Program-made: the position numbers and the translations under genes
Notes under the pieces: generated by a model
Database searches by the model: none
What the model saw: the letters and a program-made list of their open reading frames with translations, nothing else
Told to the model about the DNA's origin: nothing
Shown here: piece after piece, positions 4,401 through 40,256 of the stretch
Position numbering within the stretch: the first letter of the stretch is position 1
Layout: the number at the start of each line of letters is the position of its first letter
From: Eledone cirrhosa
Taxonomy: Eukaryota
DNA length: 64,000 nucleotides
Assembly: GCA_964016885.1 (NCBI GenBank)
Contig: OZ024741.1
Span: forward strand, 85,498,001-85,562,000
Direction: 5' to 3'

Positions 4401-7400
4401 AATGTTCTATTCCAATATAGTACAGTAATGTTCTATTCCAATATAGTACAGTGTTCTATTCCAATATAGTACAGTAATGTTCTATTCCAATATAGTACAG
4501 TGTTCTATTCCAATATAGTACAGTAATGTTCTATTCCAATATAGTACAGTGTTCTATTCCAATATAGTACAGTAATGTTCTATTCCAATATAGTACAGTA
4601 ATGTTCTATTCCAATATAGTACAGTGTTCTATTCCAATATAGTACAGTAATATTCTATTTCAATATAGTACAGTGTTCTATTCCAATATAATACAGTAAT
4701 GTTCTATTCCAATATAGTACAGTGTTCTATTCCAATATAGTACAGTAATGTTCTATTCCAATATAGTACAGTGTTCTATTCCAATATAGTACAGTAATGT
4801 TCTATTCCAATATAGTACAGTAATGTTCTATTCCAATATAGTACAGTAATGTTCTATTCCAATATAGTACAGTGTTCTATTCCAATATAATACAGTAATG
4901 TTCTATTCCAATATAGTACAGTGTTCTATTCCAATATAGTACAGTAATGTTCTATTCCAATATAGTACAGTAATGTTCTATTCCAATATAGTACAGTAAT
5001 GTTCTATTCCAATATAGTACAGTAATGTTCTATTCCAATATAGTACAGTGTTCTATTCCAATATAGTACAGTAATGTTCTATTCCAATATAGTACAGTAA
5101 TGTTCTATTCCAATATAGTACAGTGTTCTATTCCAATATAGTACAGTAATGTTCTATTCCAATATAGTACAGTGTTCTATTCCAATATAGTACAGTAATG
5201 TTCTATTCCAATATAGTACAGTGTTCTATTCCAATATAGTACAGTGTTCTATTCCAATATAGTACAGTAATGTTCTATTCCAATATAGTACAGTAATGTT
5301 CTATTCCAATATAGTACAGTGTTCTATTCCAATATAGTACAGTAAGGTTCTATTCCAATATAGTACAGTAATGTTCTATTCCAATATAGTACAGTAATGT
5401 TCTATTCCAATATAGTACAGTGTTCTATTCCAATATAGTACAGTAATGTTCTATTCCAATATAGTACAGTAATATCTATTCCAATATAGTACAGTAATGT
5501 TCTATTCCAATATAGTACAGTAATGTTCTATTCCAATATAGTACAGTAATATCTATTCCAATATAGTACAGTAATGTTCTATTCCAATATAGTACAGTGT
5601 TCTATTCCAATATAGTACAGTAATGTTCTATTCCAATATAGTACAGTGTTCTATTCCAATATAGTACAGTAATGTTCTATTCCAATATAGTACAGTAATG
5701 TTCTATTCCAATATAGTACAGTAATGTTCTATTCCAATATAGTACAGTAATGTTCTATTCCAATATAGTACAGTGTTCTATTCCAATATAGTACAGTAAT
5801 GTTCTATTCCAATATAGTACAGTAATGTTCTATTCCAATATAGTACAGTAATGTTATATTCCAATATAGTACAGTAATGTTCTATTCCAATATAGTACAG
5901 TAATGTTCTATTCCAATATAGTACAGTAATGTTCTATTCCAATATAGTACAGTGTTCTATTCCAATATAGTACAGTAATGTTATATTCCAATATAGTACA
6001 GTAATGTTCTATTCCAATATAGTACAGTAATGTTCTATTCCAATATAGTACAGTAATGTTCTATTCCAATATAGTACAGTGTTCTATTCCAATATAGTAC
6101 AGTAATGTTATATTCCAATATAGTACAGTGTTCTATTCCAATATAGTACAGTAATGTTATATTCCAATATAGTACAGTAATGTTCTATTCCAATATAGTA
6201 CAGTAATGTTCTATTCCAATATAGTACAGTGTTCTATTCCAATATAGTACAGTAATGTTATATTCCAATATAGTACAGTGTTCTATTCCAATATAGTACA
6301 GTAATGTTATATTCCAATATAGTACAGTAATGTTCTATTCCAATATAGTACAGTGTTCTATTCCAATATAGTACAGTAATGTTATATTCCAATATAGTAC
6401 AGTAATGTTCTATTCCAATATAGTACAGTAATGTTCTATTCCAATATAGTACAGTAATGTTCTATTCCAATATAGTACAGTGTTCTATTCCAATATAGTA
6501 CAGTAATGTTATATTCCAATATAGTACAGTAATGTTCTATTCCAATATAGTACAGTAATGTTCTATTCCAATATAGTACAGTAATGTTCTATTCCAATAT
6601 AGTACAGTGTTCTATTCCAATATAGTACAGTAATGTTATATTCCAATATAGTACAGTAATGTTCTATTCCAATATAGTACAGTAATGTTCTATTCCAATA
6701 TAGTACAGTAATGTTCTATTCCAATATAGTACAGTAATGTTCTATTCCAATATAGTACAGTGTTCTATTCCAATATAGTACAGTAATGTTATATTCCAAT
6801 ATAGTACAGTAATGTTCTATTCCAATATAGTACAGTGTTCTATTCCAATATAGTACAGTAATGTTATATTCCAATATAGTACAGTAATGTTCTATTCCAA
6901 TATAGTACAGTAATGTTCTATTCCAATATAGTACAGTAATGTTCTATTCCAATATAGTACAGTGTTCTATTCCAATATAGTACAGTAATGTTATATTCCA
7001 ATATAGTACAGTAATGTTCTATTCCAATATAGTACAGTAATGTTCTATTCCAATATAGTACAGTAATGTTCTATTCCAATATAGTACAGTGTTCTATTCC
7101 AATATAGTACAGTAATGTTATATTCCAATATAGTACAGTAATGTTCTATTCCAATATAGTACAGTAATGTTCTATTCCAATATAGTACAGTAATGTTCTA
7201 TTCCAATATAGTACAGTGTTCTATTCCAATATAGTACAGTAATGTTATATTCCAATATAGTACAGTAATGTTCTATTCCAATATAGTACAGTAATGTTCT
7301 ATTCCAATATAGTACAGTAATGTTCTATTCCAATATAGTACAGTGTTCTATTCCAATATAGTACAGTAATGTTATATTCCAATATAGTACAGTAATGTTC

Positions 7401-8965
7401 TATTCCAATATAGTACAGTGTTCTATTCCAATATAGTACAGTGTTCTATTCCAATATAGTACAGTAATGTTATATTCCAATATAGTACAGTAATGTTCTA
7501 TTCCAATATAGTACAGTGTTCTATTCCAATATAGTACAGTAATGTTCTATTCCAATATAGTACAGTGTTCTATTCCAATATAGTACAGTAATGTTATATT
7601 CCAATATAGTACAGTGTTCTATTCCAATATAGTACAGTAATGTTATATTCCAATATAGTACAGTAATGTTCTATTCCAATATAGTACAGTAATGTTCTAT
7701 TCCAATATAGTACAGTAATGTTATATTCCAATATAGTACAGTAATGTTCTATTCCAATATAGTACAGTAATGTTCTATTCCAATATAGTACAGTAATGTT
7801 CTATTCCAATATAGTACAGTGTTCTATTCCAATATAGTACAGTAATGTTATATTCCAATATAGTACAGTAATGTTCTATTCCAATATAGTACAGTGTTCT
7901 ATTCCAATATAGTACAGTAATGTTCTATTCCAATATAGTACAGTGTTCTATTCCAATATAGTACAGTAATGTTATATTCCAATATAGTACAGTAATGTTC
8001 TATTCCAATATAGTACAGTGTTCTATTCCAATATAGTACAGTGTTCTATTCCAATATAGTACAGTAATGTTCTATTCCAATATAGTACAGTGTTCTATTC
8101 CAATATAGTACAGTAATGTTATATTCCAATATAGTACAGTAATGTTCTATTCCAATATAGTACAGTGTTCTATTCCAATATAGTACAGTAATGTTATATT
8201 CCAATATAGTACAGTGTTCTATTCCAATATAGTACAGTAATGTTATATTCCAATATAGTACAGTAATGTTCTATTCCAATATAGTACAGTGTTCTATTCC
8301 AATATAGTACAGTGTTCTATTCCAATATAGTACAGTAATGTTCTATTCCAATATAGTACAGTAATGTTCTATTCCAATATAGTACAGTGTTCTATTCCAA
8401 TATAGTACAGTAATGTTCTATTCCAATATAGTACAGTAATGTTATATTCCAATATAGTACAGTAATGTTCTATTCCAATATAGTACAGTGTTCTATTCCA
8501 ATATAGTACAGTAATGTTATATTCCAATATAGTACAGTAATGTTCTATTCCAATATAGTACAGTGTTCTATTCCAATATAGTACAGTGTTCTATTCCAAT
8601 ATAGTACAGTAATGTTCTATTCCAATATAGTACAGTAATGTTCTATTCCAATATAGTACAGTGTTCTATTCCAATATAGTACAGTAATGTTCTATTCCAA
8701 TATAGTACAGTAATGTTATATTCCAATATAGTACAGTAATGTTCTATTCCAATATAGTACAGTGTTCTATTCCAATATAGTACAGTAATGTTATATTCCA
8801 ATATAGTACAGTAATGTTCTATTCCAATATAGTACAGTGTTCTATTCCAATATAGTACAGTGTTCTATTCCAATATAGTACAGTAATGTTCTATTCCAAT
8901 ATAGTACAGTGTTCTATTCCAATATAGTACAGTAATGTTATATTCCAATATAGTACAGTGTTCTA
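4401..8965. repeat. ~4.6 kb minisatellite of 26-bp (AATGTTCTATTCCAATATAGTACAGT) and 23-bp (lacking AAT) monomers
   Basis: Directly visible head-to-tail monomers with no spacers. A TTC>TTA variant appears from ~5855. Confidence 0.98.
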
Positions 8966-12949: not shown

Positions 12950-13306
12950 TAAACAAATAATGAATAAAACAATGAAACAGTTCCTTATATTAAACAAAAA
13001 AAGTTCATTATTTAACGATCGTTTCTAGGATATATATGTGTTAGAATTGGCATGCATATTCAACAGATCTATGTACAAAATTATACAAAATTATACAAAC
13101 TATCAAGATTTATATATAGTATTAATAATAAATTTGAAGACTAAAATCCAAAGAGGGCTCGATAAGGATAAATATATATCAAATATATAAGAACCGTAGA
13201 GCAAATATTTATTAAAATAACAGATTAAAGTTTAAGCAAAGATTCAGAAGATCCCGTTAAGGGTGAAAGCAGCGATTCTTTGCTTAAACTTTAATCTGTT
13301 ATTTTA

Positions 13307-13358
<52 letters not shown>

Positions 13359-13397
13359 AGGAAGTTATAGTTCACTTGAAGCATTGTGTAATGAGGT

Positions 13398-13728
13398 ATA
13401 AACGTTTGTATATGTATAATAAAGCCAAAACAATGCAGGTATGGACATAGAATAAAGAATGTAAATGCAAAAGATATTGTTGACAATTAGTCTTTTACCT
13501 TAGATTTATTTAAATGTCCTTAATTTTCGAGATAATATCTCTTCTTCGGAGGGAAGTAAAGCGGTTAAACCGAACAGTGGTTTAACCGCTTTACTTCCCT
13601 CCGAAAATTAAGGACATTTAAATAAATCTAAGGTAAAAGACTAATTGTCAACAATATCTTTTGCATTTGCATTCTTTATTCTATGTCCATACCTGCATTG
13701 TTTTGGCTTTATTATACATATACAAACG
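13398..13728. repeat. Long inverted repeat with 7-nt spacer GAACAGT (duplicate ~30146-30482)
   Basis: GCGGTTAAACC-gaacagt-GGTTTAACCGC at 13561-13589. The arms extend ~150-170 bp, and the right arm lacks 19 nt. Confidence 0.9.
13518..13552 (-). ncRNA. Minimal hammerhead-like motif with CCGAAGA core (duplicate 30266-30300)
   Basis: Minus strand CCT-CCGAAGA-A-GAGATA-T-TATCTC-GAAA-AT-TA-AGG: 3-bp helix I, 6-bp helix II, palindromic AATT helix III. Confidence 0.45.
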
Positions 13729-15997
<2,269 letters not shown>

Positions 15998-16002
15998 GTA
16001 TA

Positions 16003-16033
<31 letters not shown>

Positions 16034-16058
16034 GTATATGTATGTATGTATATATATG

Positions 16059-16103
<45 letters not shown>

Positions 16104-16215
16104 TTGTATGTATATATATATGTATGTAAAAGCTAAACAGAAATAACAACACAATCGGTACAGTATATGGAAGGTATATATTAGGTTAACGTTTGATATA
16201 GCGGGAAGAAGGTAT

Positions 16216-16244
16216 TAACGTTTCGGACGCTAGTCCTTCATCAG
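16216..16244 (-). ncRNA. Hammerhead-like core, helix I not evident (duplicate 32925-32953)
   Basis: Minus strand CTGATGA-A-GGAC-TAGC-GTCC-GAAACGTTA with palindromic AACGTT. Confidence 0.4.
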
Positions 16245-16675
16245 AAGAAAGAATGAGAAATAAAATAGATTGAGGAGACGGGCGGATTGGAATTGGAAAA
16301 AATGTATTTAGATAAAAATAACATGTCCATTCATGTTGACATCTCCTGAAAAACTGTTGGTGCTGGCGTTTTGTGTATTATTTGTTTTTTAGAAAAGTGG
16401 ATGATGGCAGGCGTCTACCTGAAATGAAAAAAAAACGTTTTGTAAAAAGAGCTATACTTGAGCATGTGCGTAAGCATGAGTTAGTGTGTGTGTGTGTGTG
16501 TCTTATTATAGGTCCGTACGAAGCTAAGAAGAAATGTGTGTGTATATGTGAGTAAAAGAGTGTGTGTGCATGTAAGTACGAAGCTATGAGCAAAAGTATG
16601 TTAATATAAGGGTGTGTATCGGCATGTATTAGTAGTAAGAGAAGCTGCTAATGATCAAGAGAAAGCTATAGGAAT

Positions 16676-16724
<49 letters not shown>

Positions 16725-16728
<4 letters not shown>

Positions 16729-16919
16729 AAAATGTTTGACCCCGACGGCAGAGCTCAAGCCGTTTCGACAGCTAATTCTGGACTAGAAATAGCCGTCGAA
16801 ACGGCTTGAGATCTGCGTCGGGGTCAAACATTTTCCTATTCCCCACTCTACTACCCTAAGTATTGAGTACTCTGGTGCGTTATGGTCCATCTGGTTCCTT
16901 ACCACTCTTCCTTCGTTAT
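16725..16919. mobile_element. Short non-autonomous foldback element, family member 1 (duplicate ~33436-33630)
   Basis: Imperfect palindrome 16725-16838 plus a tail ending CCTTCGTTAT; homologous to 25637-25951 and 28490-28689. Confidence 0.75.
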
Positions 16920-17109
16920 CTACTATATAAATTGGAAGTGGTCGGACATTGTATATGTAGGTGTAGTCGGATAAACGTCGAAATGGCTTGGTGGAATGCA
17001 GCGAAAATTTACACAGTTATGCAGACCCGCGGAGGCGTTGGGTCGACTTTCACGCTACAAGCTTTCATGGTTACGGAGTAAATCGATGAAACCGGAATTT
17101 CCCATTCAA

Positions 17110-17330
17110 ATTGAACTGAGAATAATCTGTGAACGCAGAAGTAATTATTTCGAGAAACGCTGCAACCGAACGAAAACAGGAAGACGATATTTTTGTTCGT
17201 GAAGACGTTCCCTGGCAATGAACGGGAAAAAAGCGAGGATAATACGTCGTTATGTGGGACGAAAAGAACAATGTCATGCAAAGACAAGACCAAGTTTATG
17301 GTATAAATGGAGTCGTTAGACTAATATTCT
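17110..17330 (-). repeat. Diverged copy of the Penelope 3' repeat sequence
   Basis: Similar to ~14000-14205 (aatctgt.aacgcagaa..tgcaaccg..acaggaagacgata..gttcgtg..tttatggtataaa..gtcgt.agactaat). Confidence 0.7.
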
Positions 17331-17739
17331 ATTTAAAATAACAGAATGATTTCCAGCCCCGGAGTTTAAGAATGATGTAAATAAAATTGAAAACGAAAAT
17401 GACAGAGGTTATTAAAATAGTAAAAGTAAATAGTGAAGATTTAGGCCAGTACATGCCCCGACGGACATACACATACATACGCAAATACACACACACATAG
17501 GCGCGCGCGTATAGTTTTCGAAGCAGCACTGAAGTATTGACATAAATGGTACACACAACTGCTATTTAATACTCGAGCAACGCCGGCTACCTCTGCTAGT
17601 ATATATATATATATATATATATAGACATAGAATTTTCGAAAATATTCTGTATGTTTATAATAAACATTTTGAAGACCTAATCGCTATAGAATAGAATACG
17701 TCACGTATTACAATTAGATTCTCGATAAAAGCAAGGGAA

Positions 17740-17782
17740 GTAATCTACGCGTTTCATTCTTATTAGAAATCTTCAGGACTAC
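17740..17782 (-). ncRNA. Type I hammerhead ribozyme, antisense copy of the array unit
   Basis: Exact reverse complement of 18027-18069. Confidence 0.85.
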
Positions 17783-18026
17783 ATATCCAGTGCTTTTATC
17801 GAGAATGACACAGCTAGAGACTTATAGAATACTTAGCTGTGTACAGGAACTGGTTTGAAAGAGCGGTTGCCGGTCCGGCAGAAATTAGAAATTGGAATAA
17901 ATGCTCTGAAATAGCGATATATATGTGAATATAGACATAGAATATTCGAAAATATTCTGTATGTTTATACAGCTAAGTATTCTATAAGTCTCTAGCTGTG
18001 TCATTCTCGATAAAAGCACTGGATAT

Positions 18027-18069
18027 GTAGTCCTGAAGATTTCTAATAAGAATGAAACGCGTAGATTAC
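18027..18069 (+). ncRNA. Type I hammerhead ribozyme (further copies start at 18337, 18647, 18957, 19267, 19577)
   Basis: GTAGTC-CTGAAGA-tTTCTaataAGAAt-GAAA-CGCG-TA-GATTAC. Helix I is GTAGTC/GATTAC, helix III is palindromic ACGCGT, and predicted cleavage is after GUA at 18063. The motif is enclosed by a 15-bp stem TTCTCGATAAAAGCA/TGCTTTTATCGAGAA. Confidence 0.85.
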
Positions 18070-20449
18070 TTCCCTTGCTTTTATCGAGAATCTAATTGTA
18101 ATACGTGACGTATTCTATTCTATAGCGATTAGGTCTTCAAAATGTTTATTATAAACATACAGAATATTTTCGAATATTCTATGTCTATATTCACATATAT
18201 ATCGCTATTTCAGAGCATTTATTCCAATTTCTAATTTCTGCCGGACCGGCAACCGCTCTTTCAAACCAGTTCCTGTACACAGCTAAGTATTCTATAAGTC
18301 TCTAGCTGTGTCATTCTCGATAAAAGCACTGGATATGTAGTCCTGAAGATTTCTAATAAGAATGAAACGCGTAGATTACTTCCCTTGCTTTTATCGAGAA
18401 TCTAATTGTAATACGTGACGTATTCTATTCTATAGCGATTAGGTCTTCAAAATGTTTATTATAAACATACAGAATATTTTCGAATATTCTATGTCTATAT
18501 TCACATATATATCGCTATTTCAGAGCATTTATTCCAATTTCTAATTTCTGCCGGACCGGCATCCGCTCTTTCAAACCAGTTCCTGTACACAGCTAAGTAT
18601 TCTATAAGTCTCTAGCTGTGTCATTCTCGATAAAAGCACTGGATATGTAGTCCTGAAGATTTCTAATAAGAATGAAACGCGTAGATTACTTCCCTTGCTT
18701 TTATCGAGAATCTAATTGTAATACGTGACGTATTCTATTCTATAGCGATTAGGTCTTCAAAATGTTTATTATAAACATACAGAATATTTTCGAATATTCT
18801 ATGTCTATATTCACATATATATCGCTATTTCAGAGCATTTATTCCAATTTCTAATTTCTGCCGGACCGGCAACCGCTCTTTCAAACCAGTTCCTGTACAC
18901 AGCTAAGTATTCTATAAGTCTCTAGCTGTGTCATTCTCGATAAAAGCACTGGATATGTAGTCCTGAAGATTTCTAATAAGAATGAAACACGTAGATTACT
19001 TCCCTTGCTTTTATCGAGAATCTAATTGTAATACGTGACGTATTCTATTCTATAGCGATTAGGTCTTCAAAATGTTTATTATAAACATACAGAATATTTT
19101 CGAATATTCTATGTCTATATTCACATATATATCGCTATTTCAGAGCATTTATTCCAATTTCTAATTTCTGCCGGACCGGCATCCGCTCTTTCAAACCAGT
19201 TCCTGTACACAGCTAAGTATTCTATAAGTCTCTAGCTGTGTCATTCTCGATAAAAGCACTGGATATGTAGTCCTGAAGATTTCTAATAAGAATGAAACGC
19301 GTAGATTACTTCCCTTGCTTTTATCGAGAATCTAATTGTAATACGTGACGTATTCTATTCTATAGCGATTAGGTCTTCAAAATGTTTATTATAAACATAC
19401 AGAATATTTTCGAATATTCTATGTCTATATTCACATATATATCGCTATTTCAGAGCATTTATTCCAATTTCTAATTTCTGCCGGACCGGCAACCGCTCTT
19501 TCAAACCAGTTCCTGTACACAGCTAAGTATTCTATAAGTCTCTAGCTGTGTCATTCTCGATAAAAGCACTGGATATGTAGTCCTGAAGATTTCTAATAAG
19601 AATGAAACGCGTAGATTACTTCCCTTGCTTTTATCGAGAATCTAATTGTAATACGTGACGTATTCTATTCTATAGCGATTAGGTCTTCAAAATGTTTATT
19701 ATAAACATACAGAATATTTTCGAATATTCTATGTCTATATTCACATATATATCGCTATTTCAGAGCATTTATTCCAATTTCTAATATATATATATATATA
19801 TGTAAGGGGGGGGGGGCGTGTGTGTATATAAATTTCTCTATATATATGCGTGTGTGTGTGTGTCTGTGTGTGTATGCGTGTGTGTTGTGTATTATCAGAA
19901 AATGCACACAGATAAATAGTTATATAAGACGAACAAACAGCGGCATCTCTACCTTTTAAACCACCATGCAGCATGCAATTTCGCATATTAGGTTGGTATT
20001 GTACATCTAATGCCAGTTTGCGTAACAGATTAGACAGCCGCTCTGTTGGCGATATGCATGTAAGACAATAACAAAACAAATCGACAGAAAATTTTACAGG
20101 TTTCTTTCGACAAAAACAGAAATAGAAATATTAAAGTTTTACGCCTAGAAATAAATAGACAAGGGATATAGCATGTCAAATGTGCATCTTGTTAACACAG
20201 GAATATATTGAAAATATAGTCTTTCTTCAAAAGAATGGCGAGCTTAATAAAATGCGTCCGTTACATACTAAGATTGAGAATTAAGACAGAAAGACGGGAT
20301 GAGGGAAAGGAAAAAGAAATGAGTGAAACAAAGGGAATTCATGGAAGAGGGAGGAAGAGAGAGAGGGGGTCGAGAGAGAACAAAGAAGAAATAGAAAGAA
20401 AATCTTATTGTGTCCACAAGAGTGTTAGCTACAAAGCTTGGCTAGAAGT

Positions 20450-21235
20450 GGTTCTGCCACAGCTGAACACATTGCTGTGCTTCCTTATTAAACTCTGCCA
20501 AGTCCAATGCTGTGCAGGGGTGTTGCATCAGGGGGCATATCAGGAGGTGCTGCGTAGTCTGTGATTCGCAGTCACACACGACGTTCTCGTCCTTTAAATA
20601 TCCCCATTTTAAATATCCCAGATTTTAATCTGTTGAGGAATTTCCACACTGCATAGTTTGAATCTGCTCCAGGGGGCAGTGCCTTGCTCACCTTTAGCTC
20701 CATTGTTGTTACAGATGGAAGGTCAAGTTTTTCTTCCTAGTCAGTGACTCTTTCACTACTTATGTTAGATGTTCCAAAGGGTGTAACACTCTTTAGGAAA
20801 CCTTTAGAGGATTTAAGGTGGTTTTTTTGCTGGCACATGGCCGAAGAGAGGATGTGTTTTATCTGTAGTCTGTTGTTGACGCTCTTTCTTGCTTGCAGCA
20901 CTTTGTCGTATCTCTGGTGGGGCTATGGCTGCCAGGTTATGCAGACAGTCAGTATGTCAGGCAGCCTGTGATGAGGCGACAGCTAACATTGAGGGCGGAA
21001 TCTAGCTTCTGGGCATGTACAGCTCGCCGCCATACTGGGCATGCATACTCGGTAGCTGAGTAACAGAGAGCTAGTGCAGTTGACTTCAGAGTTTGCACCC
21101 CAGGTTGTACCAGTGAGCCTGTGGGTGATGTTGTTCCTCACATTCACTTTGCACTTGGTCTTCTCAATGTGGATCTTAAAAGAGAGACACCTGTTCAGGG
21201 TTACACCTAGATAGACTGGGTGCTCACTGAAAGTA
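20450..21235 (-). pseudogene. Degraded LINE RT C-terminal relic, possibly Daphne/L2-group (duplicate ~35015-35800)
   Basis: HPVYLGVTLNRCLSFKIHIEKTKCKVNVRNNITHRLTGTTWGA, followed by frameshifted PVW and RLITGCL motifs. Confidence 0.7.
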
Positions 21236-21714
21236 AGGTTAAAGTAATGCAAATAGAAACCGTGGCCGAGAAAAAGACGTGTAGCATCATATACAAATAA
21301 ATATACAATCAGTAGAAAATGCACACATAAAAACAGATGCGCATGACGAACAGACAACTGCATCTCTACATCATCAGCCACCTTGCATACGAGCAATATC
21401 GCGCATTGGGGTGGTATTGCACTTGTAATGCCAGATTGCACAACAGACTCGAAAACAGCTTGTTTATGACATGCATGTGAGGTGACAACAAATCAAAAAA
21501 TGGACGGAAAAGTTTTACGGGCATCCTTCGACAGAAAACATAGAGAGAGACGGGAGAGAAACACACGTAGACTCAAGCACACACACACATACACACACAT
21601 ATCACAAAATATATATTAAAATAAACTCAATCTTATTATACCATAATGAATATTAAGGGCTAAAATCCAAAATTTGAGAACATCATTTACAAATTCTTTT
21701 TTAGGTATAATATT

Positions 21715-21900
21715 TGTTTTACTTTTGGCACAAGGCCAGCAATTAACCTACTGCATTACTGGTATTTTATTTTATCGACCAGTCAGGATGAAAGGCAAAG
21801 CTAACCTCGGCAGGATTTGAGCTCAGAACATAAAGGGCCAAAGCACTATGTGGCAAAGCATGGTGTCTGACGCTCTACCGATACTGTTAATCCACCACCC
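21715..21900 (-). mobile_element. tRNA-derived SINE (duplicate ~36280-36465)
   Basis: Reverse-complement homolog of 25055-25240: tttgcctttcatcc..ggtcgataaaataaa and 3' gctggccttgtgccaaaagt. Confidence 0.75.
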
Positions 21901-22712
21901 ATTTTTTTTTTAGGTGTAATAATACATATATATAGTAGAAGAAAGTATAGTAAGCAAAAGTACATTGTAACTGACACCATTAAACAAAAAAGGCCGTGAA
22001 AGCATGTGGCAGGTGTTCTGTCGTGAAAAATGTGGCTGATGTTATGTTTACTTAACATCTAATAAGCGTCTACCCTCGAATCGGGTAGTTACTAGTAATC
22101 CTATCTTTTGTATCTGTATATGTTCTATCGCTAGTTGGGTACATACAACTTTGAAAAAGATTACTATATACAGCAGGCTTGAACATATCCGTAGATAGGG
22201 AGGAGGCTATATTATTTTCCACCTGGCCTAGGCTTATTACAAGCCTTGCACATTTCTGATGAAGTAAGATGTATTTTTCGTCACTATTTGCACTGGGAAT
22301 ACAAATAGTGGCCTGGTTTATCATCACCATTGCACCGGGTCTGCAAATTGTGGAGATATATTTACGTCTGAATTGAGAGAGAATCAATATGACTTCGACT
22401 GAGCAGACATATGACTGCGTCACCTGGCAACAGGTGGTGGAGGAGAAAATAGAAAATACGATTAGAACTGTCATGCATTCGAACTTTTTGACCTCATCTA
22501 TTATGATACGAAGTCATGATTTGAATTTGTGACCTCAGATCTTGTTAGAAAATCAGGTTAAACCTGTTACCTGTTGAAATATATATATAAATTTGAGTAT
22601 GTGTTGGTTATTTACCAAGACTTCAGTATGCAGGGTAGAACACTCAACGAAGTACGCAGATGGTGTAATTTAAAAACAAGAAGTGTAATTCAACAGGTCA
22701 AAATTAACTTCA

Positions 22713-22769
22713 CTGTCATATATATTTCGGTGATAACCATTATTCAACAGCTATGACCTCATCAGACAG
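22713..22769 (-). ncRNA. Type I hammerhead motif, probably inactive with G at the cleavage position (duplicate 37278-37334), within dispersed repeat ~22585-22780
   Basis: Minus strand CTGT-CTGATGA-GGTCATAGC..GGTTATCACC-GAAA-TATATA-TG-ACAG. Same family as 50790-50844 and ~62315-62365. Confidence 0.6.
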
Positions 22770-23310
22770 CTAGAACCTGAACAGAAAAAACCCCAGAAAA
22801 ACAGAAAAACAAAGTTTACCTCTGTTATTTCGATCTTTTGATATGCCCAGTCCCGAAGTATGGTGTTGTTTCCTCAAGGAACTGGTGACATATGATTTAG
22901 AATGAACGAATTCAAGCATCAGTAAAATTTACCGTCCTCTCATTGGTCAGATTGTCTCACTATTCCAATACGAAGTCTATTGGATTACTTTGGTAAGTTG
23001 TCCTGGAATTAGGTCAGTCGGTTAGGGTTGCTTTTAGCAACCAACTATTCTAACTGTAGAAGAAACAAGGGGCTGTGTGGTTACTTGATAAAATGTATTT
23101 AGAAATAAAAGGAAAGCACAAACGAGGGACAGTCCTTTCTTCAGCTGTCTGCAGGAGGTCACCGACATTTCAACGCATTCAAGACACCTAGGATGGGTGC
23201 ATGTCTATACACGCACGTGTGAATATTAGTATATATACGTATAGATACATGGGTGGGTCGATGTGTGGATGTACATGTGTATGTGTATGTGTGTGCGTTT
23301 CTGTGCGTAC

Positions 23311-23366
<56 letters not shown>

Positions 23367-23442
23367 TATATACATGTATATGTATGTATATATGTATGTA
23401 TGTGTATATATGCATGTGTTTATGTATATATGTGGGTATATG

Positions 23443-23555
<113 letters not shown>

Positions 23556-23586
23556 ATTTGTGTATATGTGCGTATATATATATATA

Positions 23587-24358
23587 TTACAGTCTCGCTC
23601 GTTCCCCTTTTTACGTGTCCCAACGACTTTCTTTAGCCGTTGCTCGCACCAGCCGGAGGTATATGGTCTTTAAAGCGATGAAATACCAATGAACGTTGGA
23701 AGATCACTGATGAAGGACTAACTTTATTCATATGTAACCCAGTTGCAACCACGCAGCACGTTTGTTTTCATATTCACACATATATTTTCCTCCGTTGTGA
23801 CCCGTCTATTTCGTTCTTACTGCTTCCTCTTTCTCTGTATATTTACCCTCTCTAACAGTCACTCTCTCTGTTAGCCTCTTCCTCACCCTTCACTCACTCA
23901 CTCACTCTCTGCTTCTACCTCTCCTACTTCCTCCCGTTTGACCTTACGTAATTCTTTTCTCGCGCACGCTTGACCAGGCTGGTTGTTCCTTTTTTCTCTC
24001 TTGTCTACGATTTCACAGAACTTATGTTCACCAAATTCAGGGACTAGACTCCTTCTACCTCCCGTTTGACCTGTGCGGAATTCCTTCCTTGCTCACATTT
24101 CGACTAGGTTTGATGGTCTTTATTCTCTCTCGTTCACGATTTCACCGAACTTATATTTATGGAAATCTGGAACTTGACTCTTTCTTCCTCACTTTCCGTT
24201 GCATTACCATCTTTGTTTGTTTACAGTCTCGCTCGTCCCCCTTATTTACGTGTCCCAACGACTTTCTTTAGCCGTTGCTCGCACCAACCGAAGGTATATT
24301 GTCTTTAAAGCGATGAAATACCAATGAAGGTTGGAAGATTACTGATGAAGGACTAACT

Positions 24359-24435
<77 letters not shown>

Positions 24436-25045
24436 GAAAAATTGAACAGGGACAGAACAGAGAGGCAGTACGATAAATGTTTATTAAATTCACGCTCAGG
24501 AGAGTGGCGGGCTATTTTATTCATAGAATTTTCCATATCAGTTGTGACCCGTCATCTCTCTCCCCCTTCTCCCTCTTTCTCCATCTTACTTTCGCTCACC
24601 CCCTCTGCTAGTCACCTTCTCTCTGCTATCCTGCCACTATAACTATCTCTTTCTCGCTTCCTCTTATTTTCACTCACTCCCCCTCTGCTAGTCACCCTCT
24701 CTCCGCTAGCTCACTTCCTCCCTCGTCCGCCACTGCAAGCAGTCTCTTTTCTCGCTCACACTGCTGCAGTCAAAAGACGTGTCTGCTCTCTCGTCACACT
24801 TGCTACGACTTACTTATATCCAAAAAAAGGTTTGCTGACTTGATATTTTTCCTCTCTTTACGTTACTTTTCGTGTCTGTTTACGATTTTTTCTCGCCCCT
24901 CCCCTCCCGCCTTTTTATCCTAATAACTTATTTTAGTTATTGTTCGCACTAGGTTGAGATATACTGTCGCTAACACGAAGAAATATCGATGATTCCTAGC
25001 AGACAACTGATGATGGATATTACCCTCTTTCGCCCGTAACGTTTT
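23587..25045 (+). repeat. Three diverged, ~0.63-0.66 kb-spaced direct repeats each ending in a CTGATGA motif (duplicate ~38195-39625)
   Basis: 23587-23728 is very similar to 24220-24363, with a weaker third copy at ~24880-25045. The CT-rich spacers also resemble each other. Confidence 0.7.
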
Positions 25046-25054
25046 ATTTTCATT

Positions 25055-25234
25055 GTGGATTGGCTATATCGGTAGAGCGTCGGACGCCATGCTTTGCAGC
25101 AAAGAGTTACGGCCCTTTATGGTCTGAGTTCAAATCCCGCCGAGGTTAGCTTTGCCTTTCATCCCTACGGGGTCGATAAAATAAAGTACCAGTAATATAC
25201 TGGAATTTGCTGGCCTTGTGCCAAAAGTAGAAAC

Positions 25235-25240
<6 letters not shown>
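25055..25240 (+). mobile_element. tRNA-derived SINE (duplicate ~39635-39820; relics ~58575-58635 and ~61250-61350)
   Basis: A-box-like TGGCTATATCGG, B-box GAGTTCAAATCCC and conserved body tttgcctttcatccctacggggtcgataaaataaagtacc; ends in (TA)n. Confidence 0.8.
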
Positions 25241-25293
<53 letters not shown>

Positions 25294-25389
25294 TGGGTGT
25301 ATATTTATCTACTTATTTATATATGGATGTATGGGTGTGCACGTGTATTTTTTTGGATGTACACATATGGCGCGTATACATATATGCCC

Positions 25390-25449
<60 letters not shown>

Positions 25450-25452
25450 ATA

Positions 25453-25526
<74 letters not shown>

Positions 25527-25583
25527 CATATATATATATATACATATACATATATATATATATACATATATATATACATATAC

Positions 25584-25614
<31 letters not shown>

Positions 25615-25636
25615 CATACATATATATATTTATACA

Positions 25637-25951
25637 TAGGAACCAGTAAGACCCCGACAGCTGAGCTCAAGCCGTTTCGACGGCTAATTCTGGACTAAAT
25701 GAACATTTATCCTGGTATTTAAATAGGCGATCTTCTCAAGGGGTAATTCCATATATGGTCAAAGTGATTGTCAAAAATCAGTAGTAATTCTGTGGTTGCA
25801 AATTAGTAGGGGAGATGGTGGCTAAACCTGCCAGTAGGAGAAAGAGGGGAGGGGGTGGAGTAGACCCAATCAAGCGTTGGTAGTGCCAGCTACAGCTGGG
25901 CATGAGGTCAAAGAAGATACACCTGGTTCCTTACCACATTTCCTTCGTTAT
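25637..25951. mobile_element. Foldback-family element present only in duplicate copy 1, with a 12-bp flanking direct repeat
   Basis: TATTTATACATA occurs at 25627-25638 and 25949-25960, but only once at the empty site 40181-40192. Confidence 0.85.
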
Positions 25952-25991
25952 TTATACATATATATATATACATACATATATATATATATAC

Positions 25992-26022
<31 letters not shown>

Positions 26023-27302
26023 CAGACATATATATATATATGTATATATATACACACACACACATACAGACGCATTCGTACACATACGCAGACACACACA
26101 TATAGATACATATATATGTAAATCGACACGGGCATATATGTATACGCGCCATATGTGTACATCCATAAAAAAAATATATATATTCTTGGCGTTTTTAATT
26201 TTTAATATTGACATCTGTTGTCTATTCTATGCTTGATCGATAATCATGCAAGTAAGGCAGGAATATTACTTTAAATGTTAATGTATATCTTATTTATTTT
26301 ATGTCTATATATATGTATATATGTATGTAGATATATGTAAGGTGGAATCTTTTATAATGCAATGAAGATTTTCATGAAATATAAAATCTGGGGAGCATAT
26401 CACGTAGGTTCACATGTGTGTCTATATTTATCAACTTGAATTTGAGATAACCTTCTCTTTTCTCTTTTTCTTTTTTCATGAGAATGCATATATACTTATG
26501 TTTGAAGTTTTATCTCAGATTTTGCTTATAGACCTAAGAATTTTTAAACTAAGCATGTGGTCATTTTTTCACACATTATGGATATGTGTCTCATTCATGA
26601 ATACTGATATTTACATTATAATACCTAATTCATAAAAATTGATAATTCAAATGGATGAGACATAATATATTTTTAATATATTTTAAATATATCATCTTTC
26701 TTTCTTTTTCTCCTCTACACTGGACGTGATTTATGTGTCGGCTAGTTTAACTGTATCCCTTCCCTCCTTAACCTCTCACATATACGATGATCATCTGTCC
26801 AAAAGCTGCCTACTATATTTTTTCACTTCCTCAATGTATTTCTCTCTCCCATATCTCATTCTCTCTCTATCTCGCTCTGTTGTTTTTCTTTACATACATC
26901 TCTTCATCTTCTTTTTTTATTTACATACATCTCTTCATCTTCTTCTTTTCATCTTCGTTTTTCTTTCTATATAACTGTCATAACAGTTTCACTACCAAAT
27001 CAACTTTTTAAATAGAAGTTGCATTATTATAAGGTATGTAAAAATTATTTATAAAACAGCTTATGTATTGTATTTTGTCTGAGGAAGGCATACCATATTT
27101 TTAATATGATATCCCAGAAATATATATAACGAAATAAATATGGTTTTATAAATATAGGTTCTATTTGTTTAATATCGTAAACCTACTCCAGAAACTGTTG
27201 TGTGCTTTTATATCAGTTATAAAATATTTACTCGTTGTAACCCAACAATTTTAAATATAACTTTTGCATATATATATATGTATATATATGTATATATATA
27301 TA

Positions 27303-27421
<119 letters not shown>

Positions 27422-28272
27422 GTTGAACTAGGAATATTGGATCCTCCGTCAATGTCTGGGTGAGCAAAAATAGATTTCTATCTGCATTGGAATTTACGAA
27501 CTTGTGCATCTGCTGTGGTGTCAAAAACAAACGCGCATGACCGCACAGATAAACAATGGACTATGCCACGTGGCTTGAACCTGTAAGTGAATTGAAGGTT
27601 CTGTAACTCTGATACACAGATTATTTATTATTAAACTTGACATAACTATTATCATGTTATATTCTCTCAACTAATCACATTTGATCATATTTCTCTATCC
27701 CGTTTTCTCCCCCCATAATTATTATATTTTTATTTTTATTTGAAAAAATCGTTTTTTTTACATTGTGTTTTCCCTCTAAATATTCGCTTATATTCCTTAT
27801 ATATTCTCTATATATTTTTTTACATATATATATTTTTTATCTTTATTATTTCCACTTTTATCCTCCTTTATATTTGACCTTATTCTTACTTTTATACCTT
27901 ATTATAGTGTAATCTTCCCCATGCCTTATTATACACTATTAATTATAGATTATTATTATTACTCTTTTTCCATTTCTAATTACCTCATGTACTTTCTCCT
28001 CCGCTATATATATATATATATAGTGTATGCCCTTTGTGTTTGTGTAGCCTCTGCACACCCTCTGCACCATACTATCGACGCCACCCCATCTATGGTTCAG
28101 CTAACCACTCGACTCCCGGGAATGAATATGACCGCAGCTAGTAAACAAGGACCCACACCCCACCCTCCCGCACCAAAATTAGACTTATCGTCCCCTACTT
28201 TTGCTCTTTACTCTCTTTACTCTTTGTTCTTGAATGTTTGGTTGGTAGAGTCCATAACATCAATCAAACCCC

Positions 28273-28332
28273 TTTTATAGCTCTGACGAATCCTACGGTT
28301 ACGTAAGGAAGAAACATTGTAAGCCAATAAAA
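28273..28332 (+). ncRNA. Type I hammerhead ribozyme (duplicate 42508-42567)
   Basis: TTTTATaGCT-CTGACGA-aTCCTACGgttaCGTaAGGAa-GAAA-CATTG-TA-AGCcaATAAAA; GUA cleavage triplet and interrupted helix I. Confidence 0.7.
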
Positions 28333-28489
28333 ATCTTTTGATGTTGTAGACGCTCTTGTGTTCTTTTTCATATATACGGCTCTGCTCCAAAGCATAGAGC
28401 TAATTATTATGCTGCCAATACCTTAATGGGACACGGGTATACAATACCTAACTCCTATTAACCTAAGTATTTATATATATATATATATA

Positions 28490-28687
28490 TAACGAAGGAA
28501 ATGTGGTAAGGAGCCAGGTGGACCATAACGCACCAAAGTACTCAATACTTAGGGTAGTAGAGTGGGTAATAGGAACGAGTAAGACCCCGACGGCTGAGCT
28601 CAAGCCGTTTCGACGGCTAATTCTGGACTAGTCCAGAATTAGCCGTCGAAACGGCTTGAGCTTAGCCGTCGGGGTCCTACTCGTTCC

Positions 28688-28689
<2 letters not shown>
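28490..28689. mobile_element. Foldback-family element with 120-bp near-perfect palindrome 28570-28689 (duplicate ~42725-42924)
   Basis: The arms are centred on ACTAGT at 28627-28632 with no spacer and two mismatches; (TA)n lies on both sides. Confidence 0.85.
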
Positions 28690-28728
<39 letters not shown>

Positions 28729-28730
28729 AT

Positions 28731-29883
<1,153 letters not shown>

Positions 29884-30068
29884 TTAATAATAAATTTGAA
29901 GACTAAAATCCAAAGAGGGCTCGATAAGGATAAATATATATCAAATATATAAGAACCGTAGAGCAAATATTTATTAAAATAACAGATTAAAGTTTAAGCA
30001 AAGATTCAGAAGATCCCGTTAAGGGTGAAAGCAGCGATTCTTTGCTTAAACTTTAATCTGTTATTTTA

Positions 30069-30106
<38 letters not shown>

Positions 30107-30478
30107 AGGAAGTTATAGTTCACTTGAAGCATTGTGTAATGAGGTATAAACGTTTGTATATGTATAATAAAGCCAAAACAATGCAGGTATGGACATAGAA
30201 TAAAGAATGTAAATGCAAAAGATATTATTGACAATTAGTCTTTTACCTTAGATTTATTTAAATGTCCTTAATTTTCGAGATAATATCTCTTCTTCGGAGG
30301 GAAGTAAAGCGGTTAAACCGAACAGTGGTTTAACCGCTTTACTTCCCTCCGAAAATTAAGGACATTTAAATAAATCTAAGGTAAAAGACTAATTGTCAAC
30401 AATATCTTTTGCATTTGCATTCTTTATTCTATGTCCATACCTGCATTGTTTTGGCTTTATTATACATATACAAACGTT

Positions 30479-32734
<2,256 letters not shown>

Positions 32735-32759
32735 GTATATGTATGTATGTATATATATG

Positions 32760-32815
<56 letters not shown>

Positions 32816-33384
32816 TATGTATATATATATGTATGTAAAAGCTAAACAGAAATAACAACACAATCGGTACAGTATATGGAAGGTATATATTAGGTTAACG
32901 TTTGATATAGCGGGAAGAAGGTATTAACGTTTCGGACGCTAGTCCTTCATCAGAAGAAAGAATGAGAAATAAAATAGATTGAGGAGACGGGCGGATTGGA
33001 ATTGGAAAAAATGTATTTAGATAAAAATAACATGTCCATTCATGTTGACATCTCCTGAAAAACTGTTGGTGCTGGCGTTTTGTGTATTATTTGTTTTTTA
33101 GAAAAGTGGATGATGGCAGGCGTCTACCTGAAATGAAAAAAAAACGTTTTGTAAAAAGAGCTATACTTGAGCATGTGCGTAAGCATGAGTTAGTGTGTGT
33201 GTGTGTGTGTCTTATTATAGGTCCGTACGAAGCTAAGAAGAAATGTGTGTGTATATGTGAGTAAAAGAGTGTGTGTGCATGTAAGTACGAAGCTATGAGC
33301 AAAAGTATGTTAATATAAGGGTGTGTATCGGCATGTATTAGTAGTAAGAGAAGCTGCTAATGATCAAGAGAAAGCTATAGGAAT

Positions 33385-33439
<55 letters not shown>

Positions 33440-34309
33440 AAAATGTTTGACCCCGACGGCAGAGCTCAAGCCGTTTCGACAGCTAATTCTGGACTAGAAA
33501 TAGCCGTCGAAACGGCTTGAGATCTGCGTCGGGGTCAAACATTTTCCTATTCCCCACTCTACTACCCTAAGTATTGAGTACTCTGGTGCGTTATGGTCCA
33601 TCTGGTTCCTTACCACTCTTCCTTCGTTATCTACTATATAAATTGGAAGTGGTCGGACGTTGTATATGTAGGTGTAGTCGGATAAACGTCGAAATGGCTT
33701 GGTGGAATGCAGCGAAAATTTACACACTTATGCAGACCCGCGGAGGCGTTGGGTCGACTTTCAAGCTACAAGCTTTCATGGTTACGGAGTAAATCGATGA
33801 AACCGGAATTTCCCATTCAAATTGAACTGAGAATAATCTGTGAACGCAGAAGTAATTATTTCGAGAAACGCTGCAACCGAACGAAAACAGGAAGACGATA
33901 TTTTTGTTCGTGAAGACGTTCCCTGGCAATGAACGGGAAAAAAGCGAGGATAATACGTCGTTATGTGGGACGAAAAGAACAATGTCATGCAAAGACAAGA
34001 CCAAGTTTATGGTATAAATGGAGTCGTTAGACTAATATTCTATTTAAAATAACAGAATGATTTCCAGCCCCGGAGTTTAAGAATGATGTAAATAAAATTG
34101 AAAACGAAAATGACAGAGGTTATTAAAATAGTAAAAGTAAATAGTGAAGATTTAGGCCAGTACATGCCCCGACGGACATACACATACATACGCAAATACA
34201 CACACACATAGGCGCGCGCGTATAGTTTTCGAAGCAGCACTGAAGTATTGACATAAATGGTACACACAACTGCTATTTAATACTCGAGCAACGCCGGCTA
34301 CCTCTGCTA

Positions 34310-34374
<65 letters not shown>

Positions 34375-37300
34375 GGGGGGGCGTGTGTGTATATAAACTT
34401 CTCTATATATATGCGTGTGTGTGTGTGTCTGTGTGTGTATGCGTGTGTGTTGTGTATTATCAGAAAATGCACACAGATAAATAGTTATATAAGACGAACA
34501 AACAGCGGCATCTCTACCTTTTAAACCACCATGCAGCATGCAATTTCGCATATTAGGTTGGTATTGTACATCTAATGCCAGTTTGCGTAACAGATTAGAC
34601 AGCCGCTCTGTTGGCGATATGCATGTAAGACAATAACAAAACAAATCGACAGAAAATTTTACAGGTTTCTTTCGACAAAAACAGAAATAGAAATATTAAA
34701 GTTTTACGCCTAGAAATAAATAGACAAGGGATATAGCATGTCAAATGTGCATCTTGTTAACACAGGAATATATTGAAAATATAGTCTTTCTTCAAAAGAA
34801 TGGCGAGCTTAATAAAATGCGTCCGTTACATACTAAGATTGAGAATTAAGACAGAAAGACGGGATGAGGGAAAGGAAAAAGAAATGAGTGAAACAAAGGG
34901 AATTCATGGAAGAGGGAGGAAGAGAGAGAGGGGGTCGAGAGAGAACAAAGAAGAAATAGAAAGAAAATCTTATTGTGTCCACAAGAGTGTTAGCTACAAA
35001 GCTTGGCTAGAAGTGGTTCTGCCACAGCTGAACACATTGCTGTGCTTCCTTATTAAACTCTGCCAAGTCCAATGCTGTGCAGGGGTGTTGCATCAGGGGG
35101 CATATCAGGAGGTGCTGCGTAGTCTGTGATTCGCAGTCACACACGACGTTCTCGTCCTTTAAATATCCCCATTTTAAATATCCCAGATTTTAATCTGTTG
35201 AGGAATTTCCACACTGCATAGTTTGAATCTGCTCCAGGGGGCAGTGCCTTGCTCACCTTTAGCTCCATTGTTGTTACAGATGGAAGGTCAAGTTTTTCTT
35301 CCTAGTCAGTGACTCTTTCACTACTTATGTTAGATGTTCCAAAGGGTGTAACACTCTTTAGGAAACCTTTAGAGGATTTAAGGTGGTTTTTTTGCTGGCA
35401 CATGGCCGAAGAGAGGATGTGTTTTATCTGTAGTCTGTTGTTGACGCTCTTTCTTGCTTGCAGCACTTTGTCGTATCTCTGGTGGGGCTATGGCTGCCAG
35501 GTTATGCAGACAGTCAGTATGTCAGGCAGCCTGTGATGAGGCGACAGCTAACATTGAGGGCGGAATCTAGCTTCTGGGCATGGACAGCTCGCCGCCATAC
35601 TGGGCATGCATACTCGGTAGCTGAGTAACAGAGAGCTAGTGCAGTTGACTTCAGAGTTTGCACCCCAGGTTGTACCAGTGAGCCTGTGGGTGATGTTGTT
35701 CCTCACATTCACTTTGCACTTGGTCTTCTCAATGTGGATCTTAAAAGAGAGACACCTGTTCAGGGTTACACCTAGATAGACTGGGTGCTCACTGAAAGTA
35801 AGGTTAAAGTAATGCAAATAGAAACCGTGGCCGAGAAAAAGACGTGTAGCATCATATACAAATAAATATACAATCAGTAGAAAATGCACACATAAAAACA
35901 GATGCGCATGACGAACAGACAACTGCATCTCTACATCATCAGCCACCTTGCATACGAGCAATATCGCGCATTGGGGTGGTATTGCACTTGTAATGCCAGA
36001 TTGCACAACAGACTCGAAAACAGCTTGTTTATGACATGCATGTGAGGTGACAACAAATCAAAAAATGGACGGAAAAGTTTTACGGGCATCCTTCGACAGA
36101 AAACATAGAGAGAGACGGGAGAGAAACACACGTAGACTCAAGCACACACACACATACACACACATATCACAAAATATATATTAAAATAAACTCAATCTTA
36201 TTATACCATAATGAATATTAAGGGCTAAAATCCAAAATTTGAGAACATCATTTACAAATTCTTTTTTAGGTATAATATTTGTTTTACTTTTGGCACAAGG
36301 CCAGCAATTAACCTACTGCATTACTGGTATTTTATTTTATCGACCAGTCAGGATGAAAGGCAAAGCTAACCTCGGCAGGATTTGAGCTCAGAACATAAAG
36401 GGCCAAAGCACTATGTGGCAAAGCATGGTGTCTGACGCTCTACCGATACTGTTAATCCACCACCCATTTTTTTTTTAGGTGTAATAATACATATATATAG
36501 TAGAAGAAAGTATAGTAAGCAAAAGTACATTGTAACTGACACCATTAAACAAAAAAGGCCGTGAAAGCATGTGGCAGGTGTTCTGTCGTGAAAAATGTGG
36601 CTGATGTTATGTTTACTTAACATCTAATAAGCGTCTACCCTCGAATCGGGTAGTTACTAGTAATCCTATCTTTTGTATCTGTATATGTTCTATCGCTAGT
36701 TGGGTACATACAACTTTGAAAAAGATTACTATATACAGCAGGCTTGAACATATCCGTAGATAGGGAGGAGGCTATATTATTTTCCACCTGGCCTAGGCTT
36801 ATTACAAGCCTTGCACATTTCTGATGAAGTAAGATGTATTTTTCGTCACTATTTGCACTGGGAATACAAATAGTGGCCTGGTTTATCATCACCATTGCAC
36901 CGGGTCTGCAAATTGTGGAGATATATTTACGTCTGAATTGAGAGAGAATCAATATGACTTCGACTGAGCAGACATATGACTGCGTCACCTGGCAACAGGT
37001 GGTGGAGGAGAAAATAGAAAATACGATTAGAACTGTCATGCATTCGAACTTTTTGACCTCATCTATTATGATACGAAGTCATGATTTGAATTTGTGACCT
37101 CAGATCTTGTTAGAAAATCAGGTTAAACCTGTTACCTGTTGAAATATATATATAAATTTGAGTATGTGTTGGTTATTTACCAAGACTTCAGTATGCAGGG
37201 TAGAACACTCAACGAAGTACGCAGATGGTGTAATTTAAAAACAAGAAGTGTAATTCAACAGGTCAAAATTAACTTCACTGTCATATATATTTCGGTGATA

Positions 37301-37875
37301 ACCATTATTCAACAGCTATGACCTCATCAGACAGCTAGAACCTGAACAGAAAAAACCCCAGAAAAACAGAAAAACAAAGTTTACCTCTGTTATTTCGATC
37401 TTTTGATATGCCCAGTCCCGAAGTATGGTGTTGTTTCCTCAAGGAACTGGTGACATATGATTTAGAATGAACGAATTCAAGCATCAGTAAAATTTACCGT
37501 CCTCTCATTGGTCAGATTGTCTCACTATTCCAATACGAAGTCTATTGGATTACTTTGGTAAGTTGTCCTGGAATTAGGTCAGTCGGTTAGGGTTGCTTTT
37601 AGCAACCAACTATTCTAACTGTAGAAGAAACAAGGGGCTGTGTGGTTACTTGATAAAATGTATTTAGAAATAAAAGGAAAGCACAAACGAGGGACAGTCC
37701 TTTCTTCAGCTGTCTGCAGGAGGTCACCGACATTTCAACGCATTCAAGACACCTAGGATGGGTGCATGTCTATACACGCACGTGTGAATATTAGTATATA
37801 TACGTATAGATACATGTGTGGGTCGATGTGTGGATGTACATGTGTATGTGTATGTGTGTGCGTTTCTGTGCGTAC

Positions 37876-37930
<55 letters not shown>

Positions 37931-38032
37931 TATATATACATGTATATGTATGTATATATGTATGTATGTGTATATATGCATGTGTTTATGTATATATGTG
38001 GGTATATGTATATATATATATGTGTGTGTGTG

Positions 38033-38155
<123 letters not shown>

Positions 38156-38966: not shown

Positions 38967-39015
<49 letters not shown>

Positions 39016-39814: not shown

Positions 39815-39867
<53 letters not shown>

Positions 39868-39963
39868 TGGGTGTATATTTATCTACTTATTTATATATGG
39901 ATGTATGGGTGTGCACGTGTATTTTTTTGGATGTACACATATGGCGCGTATACATATATGCCC

Positions 39964-39997
<34 letters not shown>

Positions 39998-40008
39998 ATA
40001 TATATATG

Positions 40009-40076
<68 letters not shown>

Positions 40077-40136
40077 CATATATATATATATACATATACA
40101 TATATATATATATACATATATATATACATATACATA

Positions 40137-40168
<32 letters not shown>

Positions 40169-40207
40169 CATACATATATATATTTATACATATATATATA
40201 TACATAC

Positions 40208-40256
<49 letters not shown>

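Follow-up and report, generated by a model that had tools for sequence, protein, structure and literature searches.

A young two-armed retrozyme insertion in one copy of a tandem duplicate of Eledone cirrhosa, with an anatomy linking it to Penelope-like elements

Animal non-LTR retrozymes are described, in the accessible text of PMC7229834, as tandem arrays of 150–450 bp units with less than 50% GC, no open reading frame and a type I hammerhead in each unit, co-occurring with Penelope-like elements (PLEs); the same text proposes that tandem cDNA is made from primed circular RNA, with the PLEs as likely helpers. Circularised monomers have been shown for other animal retrozymes, and self-cleavage was seen in one of nine elements tested (10.64898/2026.07.22.740005, accessible part). 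Type I hammerheads of metazoan repeats are described as working as dimers (PMC4209133, accessible part). The EN+ PLEs with a TA preference (Neptune and Naiad; PMC8557442, accessible part) and the Poseidon element PAc (PMC11167929) carry an inverted 5'-truncated copy and a tail of ~30–40 bp at one end, and, as far as these sources are accessible, use a microsatellite target, show no visible target-site duplication and start internally, downstream of a type I hammerhead. One-end tail, inverted copy, microsatellite targeting, two start sites, extension on both strands and the proposal of a path from circle to tandem cDNA are all in print already, in the accessible parts of this literature.

The insert reported here is a real, young retrozyme insertion of this known kind, and its anatomy links it to the PLE machinery. 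It resembles the published animal retrozymes (PMC7229834; Li et al. 2026, 10.64898/2026.07.22.740005; both as accessible) in unit length, low GC content, absence of an open reading frame and presence of a hammerhead, and it shares with EN+ PLEs and PAc all the features listed above for them. It differs from these PLEs in being non-coding and in belonging to a family whose arms repeat the 310-bp unit as many as 27 times, against partial tandems of a 3–4 kb element. Compared with the published retrozymes, again as far as accessible, most insertions of this genome have two arms and a TA target, one of their ends being short and the other tailed, and a homologous PLE terminal repeat was not found among the 74 best-scoring PLE loci here. 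The window, by which we mean the whole 64-kb stretch of DNA that was analysed, holds the following features.

13108–29808, plus strand: copy 1 of a tandem duplicate, filled
17600–17623: left target run (TA)12 of copy 1, preceded by the left flank CTCTGCTAG
17619–17969, minus strand: antisense arm, 1.13 units and 351 bp (a length that includes 5 bp common to the TA run), running in RNA sense from 182 to 222 in unit coordinates, with the "short" end outermost
17740–17782, minus strand: type I minimal hammerhead motif of the antisense arm
17969: 5'-to-5' junction of the arms, with a 1-nt overlap and no spacer
17969–19785, plus strand: sense arm, 5.86 tandem 310-bp units, stopping at unit position 267, the "tailed" end
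18027–18069, plus strand: hammerhead of unit 1, predicted cut after the A at 18063, recurring every 310 bp
18188–18235, plus strand: unit positions 220–267, with putative reverse-transcription start zones at 220–234 and 252–267 and the tail between them
19784–19801: right target run (AT)9, followed by GTAA and G11
29870–44048, plus strand: copy 2 of the tandem duplicate, empty
34311–34365: empty site (TA)27 of copy 2, preceded by an identical left flank and followed by GTGTGT and a G tract

In copy 1 the insert occupies 17624–19785 (2,162 bp) between two TA runs, and the last 5 bp of the left (TA)12 also match the end of the antisense arm, a microhomology. Across all units and the antisense arm only three positions vary: units 2 and 4 carry A284T, unit 4 has G91A as well, and the antisense arm has T207A; G91A is private to this locus, and the alternating A284T may stem from a dimer circle, an origin not separable from local duplication or conversion. 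The first-pass annotation had described an array present in one duplicate and an empty (TA)n site in the other, near-zero divergence between units and a short antisense arm joined head-to-head near 17968, all of which we find; it had also called the difference a polymorphism, a term that goes beyond a comparison of two states within one assembly and is not confirmed by it.

The 14-kb tandem duplicate has a divergence of 0.24% (29 substitutions in 12,040 non-microsatellite sites). Its junction consists of a long TA run abutting the 8-bp TATATATA at 13108 within unique context, and there is no N in the 64-kb window nor within 10 kb on either side; from this junction and the ungapped surroundings in the assembled sequence, the duplicate is probably real. 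That the two copies are instead filled and empty haplotypes assembled in series, or an assembly error, is very unlikely in our view: a divergence of 0.24% lies within the allelic range, and matches of at least 99% are confined to these two copies among the scored candidates, but the ungapped sequence speaks against such a misassembly, and an 8-bp TATATATA overlap in unique context would presumably be too short to mislead a long-read assembler. Several other repeats lie in the window. Another TA-anchored family with a hammerhead-like core is present at 13108–13300 and 13834–16081 as a short hairpin and a two-armed copy, the arms of the latter ending ~100 bp apart, and the duplication breakpoint falls at the terminus of this family at 13108–13300. 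Further local duplications, one of them inverted, occur at 44079–50576 with ~98% identity; satellite arrays of 24–27-bp units span 4.5 kb and 1 kb (4401–8965 and 58861–59855); and a locally repeated stretch contains a U4 snRNA match and two tRNA-like copies (61093–61200 and 61748–62104).

The unit is 310 bp long with 34% GC and lacks protein-coding capacity, the longest stop-to-stop frame wholly within the insert being 68 amino acids. All seven expected hammerhead motifs are present (six on the plus strand, one in the antisense arm), each composed of a 6-bp stem I (GUAGUC/GAUUAC), CUGAAGA, a U.U pair plus a 4-bp stem II, GAA and the palindromic ACGCGU of stem III, with the predicted cut after unit position 95; G91A, at 18989, disrupts the stem III palindrome in unit 4. 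Since stem III of a monomer would need a 2-nt loop, the hammerhead is predicted to act as a dimer. It resembles the dimer-type metazoan hammerheads (PMC4209133) in its 6-bp helix I, 4-bp helix II and short palindromic helix III, and the axolotl HHR_Amex2 (PMC7229834) in the U.U mismatch at the base of helix II, but differs from both, as far as these texts are accessible, in its own sequence and in a predicted hammerhead with CUGAAGA. This heptamer is characteristic of the subfamily of the window; the commoner haplotypes have CUGAUGA. Variation within the family respects the predicted fold: A61G, G62A and A97G keep stem I paired, T72A converts U.U to A-U, and T79C and A80G fall in loop II, and in other families of the genome stem II pairs are swapped and the palindrome ACUAGU is used. 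The first-pass reading of the array as a ribozyme is thereby upheld, in that structure and pair-keeping variation within and across families support the fold; the Rfam hit to a hammerhead (HH9) is weak, at E 0.48 and 17 bits where the cut-off is 52. The unit is more stable than shuffled sequences (z −3.7), but the opposite strand is so as well, and fold stability therefore tells little about polarity. Judged by its sequence, the insert fits an animal non-LTR retrozyme with a predicted hammerhead.

Related sequences were seen elsewhere. Two or more other families with a type I hammerhead use the palindromic ACUAGU (L106, L116, L121, L054–L056, L040) and have a loop II of about UAACAA, like that of the commoner haplotypes of the retrozyme family, and diverged relatives of the unit (67–82%; L112:508–908, L039, L045–L047, L151) retain mainly the region of the putative start sites, unit positions ~154–330. 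In each of two runs labelled as other organisms (X4 and X6, of unrecorded type) the unit forms a single closed contig of 340 letters with one haplotype, 2–3 letters off window 18090–18390.

A 36-mer taken from the window hammerhead occurs, without mismatch, 1,527 times in the genome of 3.0 Gb. On the forward strand, sequence patterns for junctions between the unit and (TA)6 identify 783 ends of the tailed and 749 of the short type; reverse-strand counts are inflated, one site being listed at several lengths, so that the figure of ~1,500 TA-anchored insertions genome-wide is a rough one obtained by doubling the forward-strand counts. We paired outward-facing ends at most 15 kb apart on contig C1, over the interval 1–76.75 Mb that is common to the two lists; it contains 39 tailed and 38 short ends, and three tailed ends past 76.75 Mb were set aside. 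All 28 pairs combine one short with one tailed end, 21 ends remaining unpaired; short–short and tailed–tailed pairs were absent from this interval, though they would have been detectable. We then compiled 53 loci, comprising the window, 12 C1 loci (all those on C1 among the first 100 36-mer matches), two from the A284T search, 20 further paired loci and 18 unpaired ends; this set covers 25 of the 28 pairs. Two-armed loci, with arms joined 5'-to-5' and both outer ends on (TA)n, account for 41 of the 53; the other 12 are one-armed or partial, among them two interrupted by N and one whose second arm measures ~10 nt, below the threshold of the script. In L037, duplicated with its flank, and in L060, which has a further inversion at the centre, scoring was confined to the outer or first arms. 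In every one of the 41 two-armed loci one end lies at unit position 220–234 and the other at 252–267, leaving a PLE-like tail of 21–45 nt (median 35), and the short end lies 125–139 nt past the predicted hammerhead cut. It should be noted that 20 of the 41 had been picked as pairs; the unselected evidence is the 28 of 28 pairs together with 21 of 21 loci found otherwise. The antisense arm of the window, reported at first pass as a feature of this insert, is thus the normal anatomy of the family, which that annotation missed along with the short/tailed rule.

Arm lengths range from 0.24 to 27 units, exceed one unit in 74 of 82 arms and are uncorrelated between the two arms of a locus; the idea that the tailed arm is the longer one held in the first 12 loci and failed over 41 (22 against 19). 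The centres show microhomology in 25 loci, a blunt joint in two and inserted letters in 14. In L1 twin priming both target strands prime and the products are joined 5'-to-5' by microhomology, the two pieces being non-overlapping parts of one RNA, whereas the arms described here start at most ~35 nt apart and copy the same sequence. The ends are also seen in raw RAD reads of other samples, where the unit breaks off into loose (AT)n at 18202 for the short end, in 282 and 340 reads, and at 18228 for the tailed end, in 279 reads of a single run; one opposite-strand joint occurs in three raw-read runs with a single read start in each. Short and tailed TA ends in raw reads argue that the ends are not assembly products; as the flanks are dispersed repeats, the three RAD runs and one contig set examined bear on the ends of the family and not on the filled or empty state of the window site. 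A search of sequencing runs with the flank returned none recorded as RNA. All reads over the low-copy stretch 17030–17093 differ from the window, so the sampled organism A may be a related species and not the same one.

In the openly accessible literature that we searched, strict short/tailed pairing with a shared template was not found, and neither were two-armed or head-to-head retrozymes; older PLE papers and two supplementary figures (S9 in PMC7229834, S2 in PMC11167929) may bear on both points. The words "inverted", "microsatellite" and "orientation" are absent from the accessible text of PMC7229834, and the accessible part of 10.64898/2026.07.22.740005 does not describe a two-armed anatomy or a tail. 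The strict pairing also contrasts with PAc in vitro, where the strands show no difference in start site (PMC11167929).

A first look at the genome gave 37,557 reverse transcriptase (RT) and 10,595 GIY-YIG candidates. One locus, L190, is an autonomous element with RT and GIY-YIG that sits two-armed on (TA)n, its arms identical at 1,815 of 1,825 positions, with a short end 127 nt past its own hammerhead cut and the other arm bearing a 55-nt tail; the Cys motif before the nuclease in its family is one that we take to be Neptune-like. A copy of a second PLE family, L185, is likewise two-armed: one of its arms stops on TA, and the other continues further. The anatomy of these two families indicates an end rule common to the retrozyme and the PLEs of this genome. 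The unit itself was found as a contiguous terminal repeat in none of the 74 best-scoring PLE loci (30 RT and 44 GIY-YIG), and three candidate partners were rejected: the L190 family has the same anatomy and no sequence match to the unit, the L105 array beside a Neptune-like RT was inserted into a TA run that lies upstream of the RT, and the L081 unit beside a PLE inverted repeat is an insertion in one arm only. This last locus forms with L149 a second filled/empty pair (L081:804–1075 against L149:3187–3206, C1 ~30.694–30.705 Mb), in an inverted duplicate of 98.8% identity centred on a PLE-like ORF fragment, where a monomer of 0.88 unit sits in the TA run of one duplicate arm only.

Comparison of arms within and between loci shows how uniform the copied template was. 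The two arms of a locus agree in their majority haplotype in 37 of 41 cases, against 173 of 1,640 arm pairs taken across loci (10.5%), with 22 haplotypes among 39 loci. Minor letters within arrays amount to 76 of 140,723 sites, and seven of the 21 loci with at least 10 units have no internal substitution at all. Shared haplotypes and near-uniform arrays suggest that each insertion passed through one monomer sequence or a uniform source, a bottleneck that would have acted shortly before or at insertion. The majority haplotype differs between arms in four loci (L037, L042, L061 and L090). L090 switches haplotype in one arm only; in L042 both arms switch in register at a distance of two units from the 3' end, a pattern that one monomer circle alone could not produce. 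Among 62 distinct minor variants 50 are singletons and 12 are common to several units, including a 7-unit block present twice in L073 and the A284T seen twice in the window. Switches and common variants point to multimer templates, template jumps or exchange after insertion, and the common variants indicate that arrays change after insertion and that some of their length may be local growth.

Taken further, this would mean that PLE-type insertions of one or two units later expanded arm by arm through unequal crossing-over, a local amplification of the kind proposed in the accessible text of 10.64898/2026.07.22.740005. Common minor variants and repeated blocks inside some arrays agree with it, and a macro-array on C14 plainly grew in place to more than 90 kb, but both arms of each locus would have to grow separately before any mutation, while seven of 21 loci of at least 10 units lack internal substitutions, most minor variants (50 of 62) are singletons and, in C284, 16 units over two arms all carry the same six differences from the window unit. 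We regard such later expansion as decidedly improbable as the origin of these arrays. The C14 macro-array (L047–L056, G000 C14, 25.199 to beyond 25.29 Mb) is a one-strand array of heterogeneous units interrupted by TA/CA spacers and by a 6-kb higher-order repeat; it belongs to a separate sub-lineage, was excluded from the count of 53 loci and was rejected as the source of the A284T pattern in the window (G62A, A97G and A221C are fixed in it). A different tandem family of ~600 bp adjoins a retrozyme insertion at L091:3400–4790.

With regard to the order of insertion and duplication, none of the 12 other copies of the left-flank repeat has unit sequence nearby, which indicates an empty site as the deep ancestral state. 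The insert carries three mutation events, where an age equal to that of the duplication would predict 2.6. The first-pass annotation had proposed a very recent insertion of the whole multimer; a young retro-insertion into (TA)n agrees with the unit-free flank copies (12 of 12), the ~1,500 insertions of the family and the uniform arrays (7 of 21), whereas "very recent" relative to the duplication finds no support in three events against 2.6. This same count fits an array that predates the duplication and was cleanly lost from copy 2 through recombination between TA runs, aided by the spacer-less inverted arms; inverted repeats without a spacer are unstable, and the empty (TA)27 is no shorter than the filled runs of 12 and 9 taken together. 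Against such a loss stand the youth and abundance of the family, in which new insertions are common, and the second filled/empty pair, which is one-armed and has no palindrome to drive loss; copying errors may also explain part of the three events. Loss from copy 2 seems to us rather unlikely, and insertion after the duplication is favoured over it.

On balance we think it likely that the two-armed multimer was written whole into (TA)n by a PLE reverse transcriptase-endonuclease after the duplication, and we are highly confident of the more general statement that the retrozyme was moved by a PLE. From the observed anatomy, end pairing, shared haplotypes and empty site, we infer a route of five steps. 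Arrays would be transcribed and cut by dimeric hammerheads to 310-nt monomers, which circularise; a PLE protein would then nick both strands of a (TA)n run. Of the two free 3' ends, one would prime around unit position 260 and its partner around the AU-rich site at 225–234, on one RNA or on two RNAs from the same source. Each enzyme would pass the hammerhead cut site repeatedly, by rolling around a circle or by jumping between monomers, and stop at random, and the cDNA ends would finally be joined by microhomology or short fill-in to give 5'-to-5' arms. Two results on PAc speak against this reading, namely the strand-equal start sites and the finding that hammerhead cleavage is dispensable for insertion in vitro (PMC11167929).

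A more specific version, which we put forward tentatively and hold to be somewhat less probable than its negation, is that one circular 310-nt RNA is copied simultaneously by both subunits of a PLE protein dimer. Each subunit would hold one strand of the nicked (TA)n run, the starts being the tailed site and a point ~35 nt upstream, and both would roll. If true, tail, inverted arm and tandem array would be the footprint of a single reaction, which would account for the tandem, inverted and tail structure of all PLEs, and animal retrozyme arrays would arise by rolling-circle reverse transcription.

The filled/empty pair alone is an ordinary young insertion. The origin of the tandem and inverted structures of PLEs and of their tail is stated as open (PMC8557442, accessible text; PMC11167929), as is the question of whether animal retrozyme arrays enter the genome as multimers made from circles (PMC7229834) or expand locally (10.64898/2026.07.22.740005). 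The family described here offers ~1,500 young insertions of a 310-nt template that is tagged by natural haplotypes, a rule for the ends that is strict, and paralogous sites that are empty, so that both mechanistic questions become countable in one genome, and its unit is a minimal RNA for a reconstituted reaction.
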